Below are positions 43,164 through 60,353 of a stretch of DNA of 64,000 nt, piece by piece. The notes beneath the pieces were generated by a model. The model saw nothing but the letters and a program-made list of their open reading frames with translations, was not told the DNA's origin and did not search any database. The position numbers were made by a program, and so were the translations under genes. Origin of the DNA: an uncultured Phycisphaerales bacterium. Lineage in GTDB: Bacteria; Planctomycetota; Phycisphaerae; Tepidisphaerales; Tepidisphaeraceae. Where the stretch lies: positions 2,976,001 to 3,040,000 of the forward strand of contig CAVWVQ010000003.1 of assembly GCA_963758525.1 (NCBI GenBank), given 5' to 3'. Numbering within the stretch: position 1 is the first letter of the stretch; each line of letters opens with the position of its first letter.

Positions 43164-47149
<3,986 letters not shown>

Positions 47150-50724: not shown

Positions 50725-53110
50725 CTACTGGAGCAAACCAAAGGAGAAACTCAGGACCTCCGTATTGTCCTGCGAGCTCTTGGTTACGGGGAAGCCAAAG
50801 TCGATTGCCAGCGGAACTTGTCCAAGGAACGGCAAAGTGAGTCGCACGCCGGCTCCGACGCTGCTGCGGATTGTACCGAAGCGGACGCCACTCTCAACGT
50901 CGCCCGCGTCGGAGAAGACCACGCCGCGGAGGTTTTCGCCGTAGATGGGGAAGTTCAGCTCGACGGTGCCCGTCAGCGAGAAGTTGCCGCCGACCGGATC
51001 ATCCCCCAGCCCGCCGCGCGGGCTGACCCCGCGGTAACGAAACCCGCGCAAGCTTCCGATCCCGCCGCCATAGAACCGCTCGTAGAAGACCGAATCGCCG
51101 CTGATGAAGCCCGCGTTGGCATGGAAGCCCAGCACGGTGCGACGATCGATCAGATCTTCGAAAACTGATTTATAAGCGTCGTAGCTGGCCTGATACTTTT
51201 GGAAATGGAGGTCGCCGCCGAGCAGTCCGTAGCCCTCGACGCTCGCCTGTGTGACCGTCCCTTTATAAGGGAGCACGCCGGGATTGGTCGTATCGCGCCG
51301 CAGCTGCGCCGAGACGCTGGTCAGCGGATGGTGGCCTTCCGCCTCGAGAATCTCAAAAGGTCTGAATCTGGCGTCATCGATCCGGCCGATTTTCACTTGC
51401 TCCGCGCAGACTCAGCGAACCCGACCAGATGTAATCGAACCGCTTGCCGAACGAAACGCGGTCGCCGAGCCGTCGGTCGTCGTAATGCTCCCGAATGCGG
51501 TCGTGCAGATAGACCTCGTCGGAGAAGCTGTACGGCTGATCAAACATCCACGGCTCGCTGAAACGCAGCGACGCGTTGGTCTGAATCGTTCCCGGCTCGA
51601 AGCTGGCGCGAAAGTCCTGGCCCGCGCCGGTGAAAGCGTGATCGGAGAAGGTGTCGCGCCAATCGTTGGGAATGTTCGTGATGTCGAAGTTTCGCTGCTC
51701 GTAGGTGATATTGCCGCCCACGCCCCCGTTGCTGTTGATCCCCGCGCCGATGTTGAACGACGCGGTGCGATTCTCCGTCACTTCCACCAGCAGATCGCGC
51801 ACCGCCGGATCTTCGCCGATCGGGGTCATCTTGACGTCGCTGAAGTACGGCAGCGCCTTGACGCGATCCTGCGCGTCCTGCATCTCGCCGGAGTTGTAGA
51901 GGATTCCCGGAGAAAAGGCGTGAAACTCCCGCAGCACCAGCTTGTCCTGGCTCTTGTTGTTTCCCTTCACGTAGATGTTGCCGATCCGGAACGGCTTCCC
52001 CTCGTGCACGACATAGATCAGCTCCACCTTCCCCGGCTCATCGAGATACACCGTCTTAGTGTCGACGCGGAGATAATCCTCATCGCTCGATTGCGGCTCG
52101 TAGATAAAGCCAAACGGGCTGTAGTCTCGCACGATCTTTCGCACGTCGCGATCGAGCACTTCGCTGTCGTACGGGCTGCCGCTGGTGAGCTTTAATCCGC
52201 TGCGCAGCGTCGCTTCGCCGAGGCGGGTGTTCCCCTGGAAGCTCACGCGGGCGACGTCGTACCTGCGGCCTTCGGAAACCACGAAATCCACTTCCAGCTC
52301 CGACTGGTCCGGCGACCAGACGAGCTTCCGTCCGACCTTCACGTCGAAAAAACCCTTGTTCTGATAGAAGCGCCGCAGGGAGGCAATGTCCTCATCCACC
52401 TCCTGCGGGCTATACGTTCCGGGCCGGAAGATGAAAATCCACGAAGACGTTTTGATCTGGTCCTTCAGCTTGTCCTTGTCGAACGAGCGGACTCCCCGGA
52501 AATCGACATTGCGGATACGAACGCTTGGCCCCTCGACGATATTGAAGATCAGCTCGCCATGCGTCAGCGCGTCGTCGGAGACGCTCACTTCGGTGAACGG
52601 ATAATTCTTCTCGCGATAGGTCGATTCGATCGCCTGCTTGGAGAGTGCGATCCGAAAGTTATCGATCGCCTGCCCTTCAATGGTGTCGATCGCGTTTCGG
52701 AGTGTCTGATCGTCGACGTGCTTGTTCCCGTGGAAGCGAATGGCCCGAAGCAGCTTCTGTTCAGTGACAATAAAGACCACAACCACGCCGCCCGTCTTCG
52801 TCGGCTCGACCTTCGCTTCCACGTTGGCAAACTTCTTCAGCTCGAAGACGCGCTGGTAATCTTCCTGCACCGTGGCGGGGTCGAACTTCTCGCCCTCCCG
52901 CGTTCGGATGAGGTTTCGAACGATCGCGTTGGAGACAGTGGTGTTGCCGAGAATCCTGACCTCTTCGACGATCCGTCCCTTGAGATCCGGGGAAATCGCC
53001 GGCGGCGCGGGAAGCGTCTGCGAGAAAGCGAAGGGAGAGAGCGAGAGAAGACAGACAAGGCAGGAGATGCGGGCGAGATACGTCGCTGATCGAGGCTGGG
53101 TTTGTTTCAC
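50725..53110 (-). CDS. bamA: Outer membrane protein assembly factor BamA; frameshift at ~51404; start approximate (GTG 53110)
   Basis: POTRA repeats (I.F.GN, Y...GFF), ERFYGGG..SLRGF, R.SVGAG.R, C-terminal FSFG. Confidence 0.92.
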
Positions 53111-53415
53111 GCTCGCTCTGGTCCGCAAAGAGTCACGATCAGCACACTTTCGAGGCGTCACGTCTGTCACGCTATAAGCGTCGCGAAGTGTAACGGAGGG
53201 GAAAGCGATGTCAAAAACGCCGGGAGGGCATCTGCTTGCGTTGCTCGTCACATTTCCCCGGCTCGAGACCGTCACAGGATGTGCCATCGCGAGGATCCGC
53301 CGCCTCGCCGTGGAGCTGAAGCTCGCCGAAGTTTACGCCGGCGTCGATTTTCAACTCGCGCCCGACTGATGCGGCAATACGCTATCCGTGTGGCAGCCTA
53401 TCGAATTAGAATGCC

Positions 53416-54818: not shown

Positions 54819-55897
54819 ATGCAATCTGGCGGACCTGGAAGTCAAGGCGGCGGCATCTCCGGTACCGGCCAGACGCGCCAGGTCGGAACGCGCGAGCAGT
54901 TCTCCGCTGAAGAACTTGCCATCGTCATGTCTCACTTTGACATCGGCGTGCTCGACTCGATCGTCGATTATCCGCGCGGCTCCCGCAAAGCCCCCAAGCT
55001 CCTGGTTGTCAGCGAGCAGGGCAAGTTCCTTCTCAAGCGCCGCGCCCGCGGCAAAGACGATCCGTACAAGGTCGCCTTCTCCCACGCGCTGCAGCTTTAC
55101 CTGGCGAGCAAGCAGTTTCCCCTGCCACATCTTGTCGGCACCAAGAAGGACAACAATTCGATGCTCCAGTGGCGCAACGCCGTGTACGAGCTCTTCGAAT
55201 ACATCCCCGGCCAGGGATATCCCCAGACGCTCGAAGCCACCTTCGACAGCGGCCGGGTGCTCTCGCTGTATCACAAGCTGCTGCAGGATTTTCAATCTGA
55301 GTGGAAGCCCTCCGGCGGCAGCTACCATCTGGCCGCCGCGGTCGAACAGGGCCTGGCGCTATTCCCAACCAGGTGGGCGATGCCGACGCCGGGCCGCTCC
55401 TCGAATTTCTCCTCGAAAGTTATCGCCACGCCGCCCAGATGGTCGAGAGCCTCGGGCTGGAGCGCTGGCCCAAGCAGATCGTCCACGCCGACTGGCATCC
55501 GGGAAACATGCTCTTCCGCGACAACCATGTGGTCGCCGTCATCGACTACGACTCAGCACGTCTTCTCGCCCGCATCATCGACGTCGCCAACGGCGCGTTG
55601 CAATTCTCCATCATCGGCGGCGATGAAGACGTCTCCAAATGGCCCGACAAGCTGGACGAGGGCCGATTCAAACGCTTCCTCCGCGGCTACGACCAGGTCA
55701 TGCTCCTCTCCGAAGCAGAGCTGCGTTCCATCCCCTGGCTCATGGTCGAAGCCCTGATCGCCGAAGCCGTCTTCCCCATCGCCGCCACCGGAACCTTCGG
55801 CCGCATGGAAGGCTTCGCCTTTCTGGAAATGGTTCAACGCAAGATCCATTGGATGCAAAAGTCCGCCGACAGCCTCGTCGAGCTCGCCGCCGGCTAG
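54819..55897 (+). CDS. APH/homoserine-kinase-II-like phosphotransferase; frameshift at ~55358
   Basis: FLLKRR, ELFEYIPG, IVHADWHPGNMLF, IDYD. Confidence 0.8.
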
Positions 55898-57178: not shown

Positions 57179-57442
57179 TCACGCGTCCGGCGTGCGCCCT
57201 GCGCGCGTCTTCCGGAAGCCGATGAACATTTAAATCAGGCCCCAGGCAATCATGCCGTAGTACAGCGTCCAGATACCACCGTCGGCGGCAGTTGCCGACC
57301 AGTACGTCAGCCCGCTGCAGGTGATCCCGGCCAAGGCGATGGCTGCGCCGAAATACAGATCGAAACGCCCGCTCACCTTTGCCGGACCACGTGGCAATAC
57401 AGAGGTGAAGGTTGCGTCTGCTCCCACCGCGCAGCGGTTTAG
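57179..57442 (-). pseudogene. Degenerate small membrane-protein gene in the cassette downstream of attC2
   Basis: FDLYFGAAIALAGITCSGLTYW..DGGIWTLYYGMIAWGLI*MFIGFRK with in-frame TAA. Confidence 0.5.
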
Positions 57443-59378
57443 GTGCGCCTGCGAGCGTACCAGCATAGAGAGGTGCAAGTCCTCTCCGGGCATAGCGTTC
57501 TCCAGCCCGTAACTGAAAGTAACTGCGTGGCCGTGAGGCCAGGTGGAGAGCAACTGGAGGTGAACGACCAGTCCGAAACACAAGTGAACTCGATTCGGCC
57601 TGAAACGGTGACGAGCCTGCCTAAAAGTGGCGAAGTCCAGACCCGCGAGGGAGCGATGCATCTTTCAAGGGAAGCCCGGTGAGCTGAAGGGTAACGTGCA
57701 GAGAGGCGACGAGCCTCTCGTAAAGCGATGCCGGGGCCGTGAGGGTGATTGGAGTCGGAATGGTTGGAAGTGCTGGTGCGTGAAGCAGGGAGACCTGTTC
57801 CGGAAAGCGAACGGAGTTCATACGCCGTAACCAGTCGGCGTCGAAGAGCCGCCGGGGCAGGAGTCAGAGCGTCCGTAGTAGCGACGAAACGCCTTAACGG
57901 GCGTGGAGCCAAGGGACGCAGGAAAGTGGATGCGGGATGAATAGACCAATGGAACAACAATCGGCGCGAGTGCCCCGACTCGGGGCTAAGCAAGCCGAAG
58001 AATCCCATCGCATCGCGGGCGCAGGCTCGCGATGGGCATGGGCGGAACCATCGGTCTGGACAGCGCGCATGTTGCAGGCCCTTGAACAAGGGGTCAAAGG
58101 AGGCATCTGGTTCAGCCTGATTGATAAAGTCTACAAACGCAGCAACCTCTGGTCGTCATGGAGTAAGGTGGCGGCCAACAAGGGAGCGGCAGGCGTGGAC
58201 CATGTGACGGTGAAGCAGTACGAGCGCCATGTGGAAAAGCACATCGAGCATCTGACGGAAGAACTGAGGGCCGGGACGTATCGGCCCAAGGCGATCCGCC
58301 GGTGCTACATCCCCAAACCCGGCAGCGCCCAGGGGCGACCGCTGGGGATACCGACTGTGCAGGACCGCGTGGTTCAGGGCGCGCTGCGTCACGTGCTGGA
58401 ACCGATCTTCGAGAAGGACTTTCACGAGCACAGCTACGGCTTTCGCCCCGGAAGGGGATGCAAAGACGCGCTGCGTCACGTGCAGAAACTTTTGGACGAC
58501 GGATACCGGTACGTGGTAGACGCGGATCTGAAAAGCTACTTTGACACGATCCCGCACCGGCAGTTAATGGAGCGGGTGAGCCAGAAGGTGGCCGACGGAC
58601 GAGTGCTGAAACTGATCGAATCATTCCTCACGCAAGGCGTGCTGGAAGGACTGGACCAGTGGACGCCCGCATCCGGCGCGCCGCAAGGCGCGGTGCTCAG
58701 CCCACTGCTGAGTAACGTCTATCTGGACCCGCTGGACCATCTGATGGCCCGGCAGGGATTCCAGATGGTGCGCTACGCGGATGACTTTGTGATCCTGTGT
58801 CAGAGCCAAGAGGAGGCCGAGCGGGCGCTGGCCGAGGTGCAACGATGGACGGCGCAAGCCGGTCTGACGCTGCATCCGGAGAAGACACGAATCGTCGATG
58901 AGCGACAAAAGGGCTTCGACTTCCTGGGCTATCACTTTGGCCAAGGTCAAAGAGAACCCGGGAGCAAGAGCCTCAAGAAACTCAAAGACACCATTCGTGA
59001 AAAGACCCAACGTCGGAACGGCACTCGAATGGTCTGCATCATCGGCACGGTCAATCAGACGCTGCGTGGCTGGTTTGGCTACTTCAAACACAGCCGACGC
59101 GAGACGTTCGCTCCGCTGGACGCGTGGATCCGTATGAGGCTGCGAAGCATCTTGCGGCGACGCCACGGCGGGCGTGGACGTGGCGGTGGTCGTGACCACT
59201 ACCGCTGGCCCAATGCATACTTTGCCAAGCTGGGACTTTTCTCGCTGTTACAAGCCCATCGCTTGGCCTGTCAACCCGCTCGAACGGGAACCCACTGACT
59301 GGAGAGCCGGATGCGGGAGAACCGCCAGTCCGGTTCGGCGGGAGGGGAGGCCGGGAAACCGGCCTTCCCTACCCCGAT
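57443..59378 (+). mobile_element. Complete group II intron
   Basis: 5' GTGCG at 57443; domain V GAGCCGGATGCGGGAGAACCGCCAGTCCGGTTC (59304-59336); domain VI ending CCCTACCCCGAT; removal restores GGTTTAG|TTCAAC. Confidence 0.92.
57937..59298 (+). CDS. ltrA: Group II intron reverse transcriptase/maturase, no endonuclease domain
   Basis: NKGAAGVD, RPLGIPTVQDR, SYGFRPGR, DLKSYFD, PQGAVLSPLL, YADD, FDFLG, X domain LRGWFGYF. Confidence 0.95.
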   Translation: MNRPMEQQSARVPRLGAKQAEESHRIAGAGSRWAWAEPSVWTARMLQALEQGVKGGIWFSLIDKVYKRSNLWSSWSKVAANKGAAGVDHVTVKQYERHVEKHIEHLTEELRAGTYRPKAIRRCYIPKPGSAQGRPLGIPTVQDRVVQGALRHVLEPIFEKDFHEHSYGFRPGRGCKDALRHVQKLLDDGYRYVVDADLKSYFDTIPHRQLMERVSQKVADGRVLKLIESFLTQGVLEGLDQWTPASGAPQGAVLSPLLSNVYLDPLDHLMARQGFQMVRYADDFVILCQSQEEAERALAEVQRWTAQAGLTLHPEKTRIVDERQKGFDFLGYHFGQGQREPGSKSLKKLKDTIREKTQRRNGTRMVCIIGTVNQTLRGWFGYFKHSRRETFAPLDAWIRMRLRSILRRRHGGRGRGGGRDHYRWPNAYFAKLGLFSLLQAHRLACQPARTGTH

Positions 59379-59487
59379 TTCAACGGATAGAGTTCTCTGG
59401 CCGTCCACGCGACGCGGCCGGGAACGTGAAACTGAAGACAAGCTAACGACGCGACGCGGGACGGTCCAGAGCAACGCGGGGTTATGC
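59379..59487 (-). other. attC site 2, R' core interrupted by the intron
   Basis: Minus strand: R'' GCATAAC, 5 nt, L'' GTT(G)CTCT, GG(A)CCGTCC ... GGACGGCC, L' AGAGAAC, R' GTTGAA|C. Confidence 0.8.
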
Positions 59488-59503
59488 CGCAACTCCGGAT
59501 CGC

Positions 59504-59863
59504 CTAGCAGACCGGCCCGGCAAGAAAAAATGTGACGGCAAGATCGATAAATACGGCGATTGCCGGACATAGGAAAATCGCCAGAAGATATAGTGCTTTT
59601 GCCCCGCCGGACGCGCCAGTTTGGATTAGCAAGAAATGGACAAAGGAGCCTAATACGCACATGCAATCGATCGCCAAGCAGGATAGCCAGATCGCGCCAA
59701 CCCGCTGGTAATTGCTGCCCGCTGCGAACTGCAGGACGATGCAGACGATGTTGATGATGGCAACTACAAGGACAAGATGCCCAGCCGAACGCCGAAGCCG
59801 ACGATCGCTCTCCGATACATTCCCTGGCGACGGGGTCGAGTAGTCGAGCACGCGTTGCCGCAT
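59504..59863 (-). CDS. Gene-cassette small membrane protein (3 TM)
   Basis: 119 aa between two attC sites; ATG lies inside the core GTTATGC. Confidence 0.7.
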   Translation of the reverse strand: MRQRVLDYSTPSPGNVSESDRRLRRSAGHLVLVVAIINIVCIVLQFAAGSNYQRVGAIWLSCLAIDCMCVLGSFVHFLLIQTGASGGAKALYLLAIFLCPAIAVFIDLAVTFFLAGPVC

Positions 59864-59948
59864 AACGAAGAGGACTTTATGCAGCGTGCGGCCAAAACCA
59901 TGACCAGACGGAACCGGTTCGTCGCACGCTGGATAAAGTCTGTTGAAC
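59860..59948 (-). other. attC site 1 (atypical L boxes)
   Basis: Minus strand: R'' GTTCAAC, GACTTTAT-C-CAGCGTGCG ... CGCACGCTG-C-ATAAAGTC, R' GTTATGC. Confidence 0.65.
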
Positions 59949-60106
59949 TGAACCGATCGTCAGTTTCTATGGGGATTGTATCGAGTTGCCGGGGCGGTGT
60001 CCCGCTCGGACTGATGCATGCCGCGGTTTGCGCCGCTGCATGATTCTTGGGAGAGGCGTTGCCGTGCGACTCCGCTCTGCTGGATTGTCGCCTTGAACCA
60101 CCGGGA

Positions 60107-60285
60107 AATCAAACGGGGACAGCCGTCTATTATTTTTCATCGCTGCCTCACGCTTTCTGCGCCCCACGCCCCGATTCAGCCCATGGTACGCGATTCCACC
60201 AGGAGCGATGCGGGCCGTCCTCGGCATCTCTCCACTTGAGCCGATCAGCCGCCGTTTGGAAATAGGCGGCCGTCCCCGTTTGATT
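60107..60285 (-). mobile_element. Internally deleted RAYT/Y1 (HUH) transposase remnant between 25-bp inverted repeats
   Basis: MPRTARIAPGGIAYHGLNRGVGR from ATG 60227; inverted repeats 60107-60131 and 60261-60285 (23/25 match). Confidence 0.75.
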
Positions 60286-60353
60286 CCCCCAAAACCGCAC
60301 GTCTGGTCTTCTCCCGCACGTTGCTCGTCTTCTGCTAACCAATGTGGAAAGTT

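Follow-up and report, generated by a model that had tools for sequence, protein, structure and literature searches.

We analysed a 64,000-nucleotide stretch of DNA (the window; contig CAVWVQ010000003.1, positions 2,976,001 to 3,040,000, assembly GCA_963758525.1) from an uncultured Phycisphaerales bacterium, in which a group II intron interrupts the R' box of an integron attC site. The reading that we favour, at a probability of roughly 0.8, is that this non-IIC intron occupies the terminus of a cassette-like element encoding an IS91 transposase and a tyrosine recombinase, that it recognises a small DNA hairpin together with 5+1 paired exon bases, and that it reaches attC second-hand.

An intron at the junction of an attC site and an element end

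The intron spans 57443–59378 on the plus strand (1936 nt, with GTGCG...CCCCGAT ends) and runs antisense to the cassettes, in agreement with the original prediction, whose description of the locus proved accurate. Its open reading frame (ORF; 57937–59298, +) encodes a reverse transcriptase (RT)/maturase of 453 aa with YADD at residue 280, scores above the TIGR04416 cut-off (403 against 300 bits) and contains RVT_1 and GIIM; no endonuclease family or domain was detected in it by profile search. Domain V, read from the sequence, lies at 59304–59336 (+) and carries the predicted AGC triad (59305–59307) and a GAGAA loop of 5 nt, while the branch A of domain VI is predicted, also by reading, at 59371 (+). 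Rfam RF00029 matches domains V–VI at 59302–59378 with 50.5 bits. With GUGYG...AY ends, domains V–VI and an ORF comprising RT and X but lacking an endonuclease (En-minus), the sequence has the features by which a group II intron is defined, and the intact ORF points to a complete, apparently mobile type for which splicing and retromobility are predicted. A promoter and terminator scan gave signals at chance level.

On the minus strand the intron is flanked by ...TCTATCC GTTGAA|C TAAACC, and its removal indeed rejoins GTTGAA|C, the R' box of a well-formed attC. This attC site of the upstream cassette (59384–59487, −) has R'' GCATAAC and L boxes with extra bases, and extends through the G of R'. 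The site at 59487–59378 scored 87.6 bits (rough E-value 1.5e-28) and was the sole match in the window to a covariance model that is home-made from 8 plain attC sites of the source genome, not IntegronFinder's, and narrow. It has R''/L''/L'/R' boxes, a hairpin and extra-helical bases, resembles sites beside an intI, and belongs to an attC family that adjoins a true intI on contig C1 of the same genome (TIGR02249 above cut-off). We regard 59384–59487 as a true attC that IntI is predicted to recombine.

The minus-strand flanks also confirm that the insertion lies before the attC hairpin, at the R' end, and distal to the G|TT crossover (59384|59383). Since it lies 5 nt beyond this crossover, the intron belongs to the downstream unit, as had been proposed. 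What was taken there for a downstream cassette is the terminus of an element. The segment at 57393–57442 (−) is the relic of the left end of an IS91/tyrosine-recombinase element, 86% identical over 50 nt to a full element on contig C2 and missing its body. The bases TTGAA (59379–59383, −) are the first five of the element past the crossover and double as the remainder of the attC R' box; the bases that follow the G|TT crossover, together with the entire 5' exon, thus belong to another mobile element.

The source genome (G000) contains four full copies of the intron, which differ by 1–2 bases, together with one 3' fragment and one decayed relative. The four full copies adjoin four differing attC hairpins, yet exactly 20 nt of the 5' exon are common to all. 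These 20 nt are the start of a repeated unit present as eight 287-bp copies, three with and five without the intron, and as one 2.5-kb element without it, giving six intron-free units. All four full copies sit at the element's terminal mini-hairpin, and the intron was found at 0/9 sites of the same attC family in G000 that are not followed by an element end. At least two insertions in this genome are implied, since the left end in the window and the 287-bp unit part ways after 20 nt. A single insertion, later duplicated, probably accounts for two other copies, whose 5' flanks are 99.3% identical over 906 bp. The 287-bp unit was considered as an ordinary ORF-less cassette, an assignment dropped because its ends are shared with the 2.5-kb element.

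A tyrosine recombinase is encoded in the 2.5-kb element; among NCBIfam models that of the integron integrase matches it best, at 197 bits against a cut-off of 265 that is not reached. The element also codes for an IS91 transposase of the Y2 HUH type (NF033538, 419 bits against a cut-off of 125, in the full copy on C2; none in the relic in the window). Each unit is bounded like a cassette: it starts with G|TTGAAC TAAACCGC and ends with GTTCAAC, a long inverted repeat and CTCTTCG|TT. The two ends of the element, GTTGAACTAAACC and GGTTCAGTTCAAC, are complementary over 13 bp, and their joining into an attC-like layout is seen directly at a tandem junction on C2. Similarly to IS91, the element has a terIS palindrome beside a GTTC-type site and lacks a target duplication. 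The GTTC/CTTG target of IS91 next to oriIS is absent: the right-hand flanks, TTAT in G000 and TTAG or TTGT in another genome of the phylum (G331), form an integron-type G|TT junction. Judged by their bases, these junctions are closer to an IntI-type crossover than to the GTTC target of IS91.

Several further arrangements of the element were observed. The full copy (G000:C2:272503-274989; L004, L238) has its two genes in one 676-aa frame; homologous recombinases are separate proteins of ~290 aa, and the fused frame may be an assembly indel. The eight ORF-less 287-bp derivatives lie at C2:268000-277000 and C1:203955-209534 among ordinary cassettes, two of them in tandem, and their AT-rich middle could hold a putative promoter. 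At C1:204806-204866 and C2:274989-275030 of G000, the left end of the element is fused to the middle of an attC stem, producing half sites. A truncated second copy of the 5' part of intI lies inside the array at C1:205970-206284 (G000), and a transposase-like ORF beside it replaces the 5' part of an intron copy. One contig in sequencing dataset X3 weakly suggests an intron-free element end followed by another attC-like start; contigs skipping the intron were absent from four DNA sequencing runs, and RNA runs contained the locus to a share of 0.07 at most.

Exon recognition and classification of the intron family

Homologues were collected as a set of 160 loci (the best 80 of 323 in genomes and the best 80 of 582 in metagenomes), in which intron boundaries were located by script. 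The original prediction had proposed an exon-binding site 1 (EBS1) in a CUAAA loop at 57621–57625 (+; intron positions 179–183), pairing with UUUAG at the exon end, termed intron-binding site 1 (IBS1; TTTAG, 57438–57442, +). Comparison bears this out: the loop pairs with the exon end over a run of at least 3 bp in 93 of 103 de-duplicated rows, with a mean of 4.43 against 1.36 for shuffled exons, and no other position covaried with the exon end in these 103 rows. EBS3, an A at 57748 (+) whose partner is the first base (T) of the 3' exon, is Watson–Crick with that base in 85/91 rows, and in 19 of the 24 where it is not the usual C. EBS2 was not found in the family, the best position exceeding shuffled exons by only 0.25 bp.

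The DNA mini-hairpin ACCGC-GCA-GCGGT (57426–57438, +) ends 4 nt ahead of the splice site and, as inferred from the comparisons below, would be both the structural target of the intron and the subterminal palindrome of an IS91-type end. A second set comprised 103 non-redundant homologue exons and 45 nt of flanking sequence; 88 of them have a hairpin at −5 kcal/mol or better whose end lies 0–8 nt ahead of the splice site (controls: 19/80 and 26/85). A stem-geometry script, whose size range leaves out the 13-nt hairpin of the window itself, counted perfect stems of at least 5 bp, mostly 8 bp, in 73/103 exons and 11/80 controls. In 50 of these 73 the stem ends 3–4 nt from the splice site, so that IBS1 abuts or overlaps it. 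Pairing in the mini-hairpin is kept by a compensatory GCCGC/GCGGC change in two related loci (L089, L082) and in G331. We therefore find, by sequence comparison, that the family rule is a hairpin plus a short IBS1 (4–5 nt) and IBS3 (1 nt), like that of class C but without the spacer.

A DNA search of 60 relatives also placed other family members behind hairpins. One match, in genome G003, extends into the 3' exon and was discarded as a candidate, having no attC on inspection. Decayed pieces of a related family intron lie in the source genome at G000:C3:2745193-2745877 and C3:832840-832914, the 5' piece behind an unrelated 7-bp hairpin.

Phylogenetic analysis of the intron-encoded protein places the intron outside class C, as had been predicted. 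Reference introns were taken from plasmids with class labels from Supplementary Table 3 of PMC8919778; the seven class C references comprise five labelled from that table and two assigned by integron context. The trees include one reference each of classes D, E and F, on long branches, and leave out g6 as well as L178 and L182, which have no usable ORF; a quick tree has 77 rows, and a careful tree of 24 rows omits three long outgroups. The family and class C form separate clades with supports of 99 and 99 in the quick tree and 100/100 and 100/100 in the careful one, and a grouping of the window's sub-clade with the two integron-borne class C introns is rejected (approximately unbiased (AU) test, p 3e-48, LG+G4). 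The pBN3 intron of Paraburkholderia aromaticivorans, labelled Unclassified and 52% identical, falls within the family clade (100/100). The protein thus clusters with an 'Unclassified' intron of Miura et al. 2022, a label that the table does not split into U1, U2 and U3.

Of 141 homologue loci whose 3' end was located, 116 carry the AGC triad, as the window does; the other 25 fall outside the search pattern, and CGC was found at none. The protein did not group with the D, E or F reference (single, long-branched representatives of their classes), and the EBS2–IBS2 pairing of IIB-type introns (D, E, F) is missing. The family does show, by comparison, the class C-like combination of an upstream hairpin, a short IBS1 and IBS3 without EBS2. 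Class E, a first guess from the N-terminus, was ruled out by the trees. The C-terminal 122 aa align with solved class C proteins over the thumb only. PMC3552965 and PMC4244168 define g1–g6, and the latter describes g6 RNA as resembling class C, a likeness that fits poorly with the AGC domain V seen here; PMC3753933 reports a 5-nt domain V loop in IIE/IIF, the loop size found here.

Two related observations concern other introns. A second, unrelated AGC-type group II intron (G000:C3:870414-871755; 40% identity) groups loosely with the class F reference (92/86). The pBN3 family member at L166 (NZ_CP022993.1) lies between tyrosine recombinase genes and has five copies on one plasmid.

Proposed mechanism and competing explanations

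In all five closest relatives (L086–L090, 87–94% identity) the 5' exon is the mini-hairpin of the element. By tblastn, the recombinase gene comes next in three of them, and a fourth shows its first codons. A 3' end was located in four: an attC adjoins it in one, the reversed hairpin of the element in another, and neither in the remaining two. The closest relatives thus follow the element terminus whether or not attC adjoins. A second sub-clade (L080, L082, L083; 53–55% identity) lies behind the same kind of hairpin. Its insertions fall at a different base of the terminal tetranucleotide and in contexts other than attC, with the recombinase gene downstream in L082 and L083. A tree that groups L082 with the window's sub-clade fails the AU test (p 0.0004), a result suggesting that the element-end target was adopted on two occasions.

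Among 400 other genomes of the phylum, 18 contain the terminus (28 loci returned, about three of them probably chance), and attC was found upstream at 0 of the 26 loci with enough flank, by a heuristic that did detect the G000 sites. In G331, five 2.6-kb copies with an attC-like right end lie at dispersed G|TTAG (four) and G|TTGT (one) sites; bounded by G|TTGAAC...hairpin-G|TT, none of the five shows a target duplication. Since TTGAAC is the terminus of the element, it completes an R' box wherever the element lands on an attC.

We also observed that two of these five copies, which together are L240–L244, lie within short TTAGC-type tandem repeats, and that the mini-hairpin is present at both ends. 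At L087:3114-3200 the body of the element and its attC-like hairpin no longer share an orientation, pointing to an inversion that took place between the 13-bp inverted ends. At L086:2074-2356 the left end follows a GTT without a hairpin, which could be an attI-type or secondary site. A search for the intron/terminus junction in viral contigs returned two matches, neither an intron; with one mismatch allowed, the same junction gave no exact match in 401 genomes and hits in 45, about the level of a reversed control. The recombinase, searched in 301 genomes of the class at E 1e-60, was found in G000 and one more.

These comparisons suggest the following mechanism. Comparison shows that EBS1 (4–5 nt) and EBS3 (1 nt) of the family base-pair with the exons, that EBS2 is missing and that the introns lie ~3–4 nt behind short hairpins; it likewise shows the window's sub-lineage at the hairpin-TTA-G|TTC of the element's left end. 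The ribonucleoprotein (RNP) would reverse-splice into the bottom strand of the element while this is single-stranded and folded, as it may become during replication, rolling-circle transposition or cassette recombination. The element would integrate at G|TT sites, including attC R', by its own IntI-related recombinase or the host IntI, and the intron would be carried along with the element or its 287-bp derivative. According to PMC13181058, terIS is a subterminal palindrome with a cleavage site of the GTTC type beside it, and the active intermediate is the bottom single strand. The intron is on this strand, within G|TTC, and the palindrome ends 4 nt before it. The insertion would split the GTTC site at which the IS91 transposase terminates, and termination may fail. 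Since the G|TT crossover is left intact, recombination of the integron type could still mobilise the unit together with the intron.

A number of points weigh against this interpretation. Splicing, mobility and recombination, for the intron and the element alike, are predictions from DNA comparison. The G000 assembly is 91% complete and 6% contaminated, and the element in the window is merely a 50-nt relic. The rows of the family comparison are related, so their counts overstate independence. A distant relative, L113, weakly passes an attC heuristic (−12.3 kcal/mol). The stem of the mini-hairpin, at 5 bp, is shorter than the usual 8 bp of the family, and something else may help. Finally, in the excised circle the insertion point is also inside the R box of the element's attC-like fold, and the mini-hairpin and the circle-junction fold are inseparable by sequence alone.

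This last point opens the strongest alternative, which we nevertheless consider unlikely: that the target of the intron is the attC-like fold formed at the junction when the element is excised, read at the bottom-strand R box and with a polarity opposite to that of IIC-attC introns. The 13-bp complementarity of the ends, the attC-like layout at the C2 tandem junction and the position inside the R box are all consistent with it. However, members of the family as a rule have a hairpin immediately upstream of the splice site, the compensatory changes preserve the mini-hairpin, and the second sub-clade uses the same hairpin with a different terminal base in non-attC contexts.

Distinctly less probable is a single old insertion into an element end followed by passive carriage, homing having been lost. 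The two copies that share a 906-bp flank, probably one event duplicated, would suit such a history. Against it, the window copy is only 1–2 bases from the others, yet its host end diverges after 20 nt; L086–L090 occupy further different element ends, and the ORF is intact.

Slightly more doubtful again, and largely refuted, is the possibility raised in the original prediction of a second intron lineage that aims at attC R' cores. It would account for the four full copies and one 3' fragment in G000 and for L088, from another sample, all of which end at GTTGAA| in cassette arrays. The original prediction had named homologous copies at sites unrelated to attC as the observation that would speak against it, and such copies predominate: a site of this attC family was found, with the narrow covariance model, at 1/90 homologue loci (87 of the 160 and three others), and 2/120 3' exons pass a general attC heuristic, one of them weakly. 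The 0/9 occupancy of plain attC sites in G000 argues in the same direction, as do L086 and L089, which combine the same intron lineage and 5' exon with no attC. The comparison indicates that attC is not the target of the family. Insertion is at the R' end (TTTAG|T) and not at R'' after the attC stem (TTGT/T), and a lineage-wide preference for attC, as in IIC-attC introns, is absent. A chance EBS1 match at an arbitrary site, which a pairing of only 5 bp might suggest, can be dismissed for practical purposes, since loop and exon end vary together within the family and the junction recurs in other samples.

A broader proposal, to which we give somewhat less than even odds, extends the element-end reading to the family: a widespread AGC-core lineage may read hairpins without spacer or EBS2, as an intermediate between IIC and IIB, and at least two of its sub-lineages may hyperparasitise IS91-recombinase cassettes, splitting the transposase termination site, sparing G|TT and riding from attC to attC.

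Comparison with known systems and further features

For IIC-attC introns, the published insertion position is R'', behind the attC stem (PMC7923331; PMC3001079, S.ma.I2 type), and we take it from these papers. The intron described here shares with them (I) the lack of an endonuclease, (II) an orientation antisense to cassettes and on the bottom strand of the attC junction, and (III) a hairpin upstream of the splice site with a short IBS1 and IBS3 and no EBS2. In contrast, its protein forms a separate clade, its triad is AGC instead of CGC, it sits at the R' end instead of R'', and the hairpin upstream of it is no attC stem but an IS91-type palindrome of 5 bp.

A similar comparison holds for the class C introns behind hairpins or terminators. 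In the E.r. structure (PMC10190682), the DNA stem-loop is described as exclusive to IIC, with a stem of ~12 bp and a spacer before IBS1, and EBS2 is proposed to have evolved as its replacement. The use of a stem-loop with EBS1 and EBS3 but without EBS2 is shared, as is the early location of EBS1 in domain I (position 179 here and 184–187 there). However, the stems of our family are mostly 8 bp and end 3–4 nt from the splice site, EBS3 follows EBS1 by ~125 nt, and domain V is AGC-type with a 5-nt loop. Miura et al. (PMC8919778) found U1, U2 and g6 introns often directly after terminators; for their 'Unclassified' introns (U1–U3), the accessible text gives no RNA structure, EBS/IBS rule, or link to IS91 or integrons.

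Introns other than class C are already known in attC arrays: UHB.I2 and H.ha.F1/F2 (PMC7923331), and CL1 and E introns in Shewanella integrons (PMC9229058). A role of hairpins was speculated for such introns. They differ in being CL1 or class E without a demonstrated target rule in the portions cited, and those of PMC7923331 are in cassette orientation and mostly truncated, whereas the intron here is antisense and complete. The host element also has precedents. ISShvi3, IS91-like and next to attC, forms a cassette structure (PMC9229058), and IS91 recombinases are described as close relatives of IntI (bioRxiv 10.1101/542381). IS91 elements with an upstream tyrosine recombinase share with ours both encoded proteins and a cassette-like structure at attC, the recombinase in ISShvi3 itself being presumed; their ends, a G|TT rule and intron invasion are not described in the accessible text. 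Introns homing to IS91 ends, or the EBS rule of this family, were not found in the full-text literature searched, a scope beyond which most subscription papers, ISfinder and the intron database lie; on introns at IS91 ends, the accessible parts of PMC5737581, PMC7306698 and PMC4424553 hold nothing. Published precedents thus exist for non-C introns in arrays and for cassette formation by an IS91 element, while the hairpin/element-end target rule was not found in that literature.

A broad non-C family with a different hairpin geometry makes the idea that EBS2 replaced the stem-loop testable through natural intermediates, and the clean EBS1 covariation suggests that the family may be retargetable. 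We note as a warning that an intron 'in an attC R' box' can have been carried there by an IS91-recombinase element, the terminus of which imitates R'. The nesting of an intron in an IS91 end in a cassette array would offer a route into integrons without attC targeting. Existing knowledge of antibiotic-resistance integrons is unchanged.

Reading the minus strand, the locus is ordered as a right-end relic, a 119-aa cassette, the attC and the left-end relic bearing the intron. The cassette ORF (59504–59863, −; 119 aa) is hydrophobic and has no Pfam family, and the cassette start G|TTATGC is complementary to its R''. The right-end relic of another element copy (59860–60103, −; 78% over 242 nt) includes an attC-like site at 59948–59860 (−) with the layout GTTCAAC-long inverted repeat-CTCTTCG|TT.

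At 60100–60330 of the window, an inverted repeat surrounds a short frame whose start we take to be like REP-associated tyrosine transposases; no family match was obtained for it. Genes at 43164–46320, 50725–53287 and 54819–55897 (sensor kinase, BamA-like and APH-family; labels except APH by eye) seem to be interrupted by frameshifts, a hint that the assembly contains indel errors.

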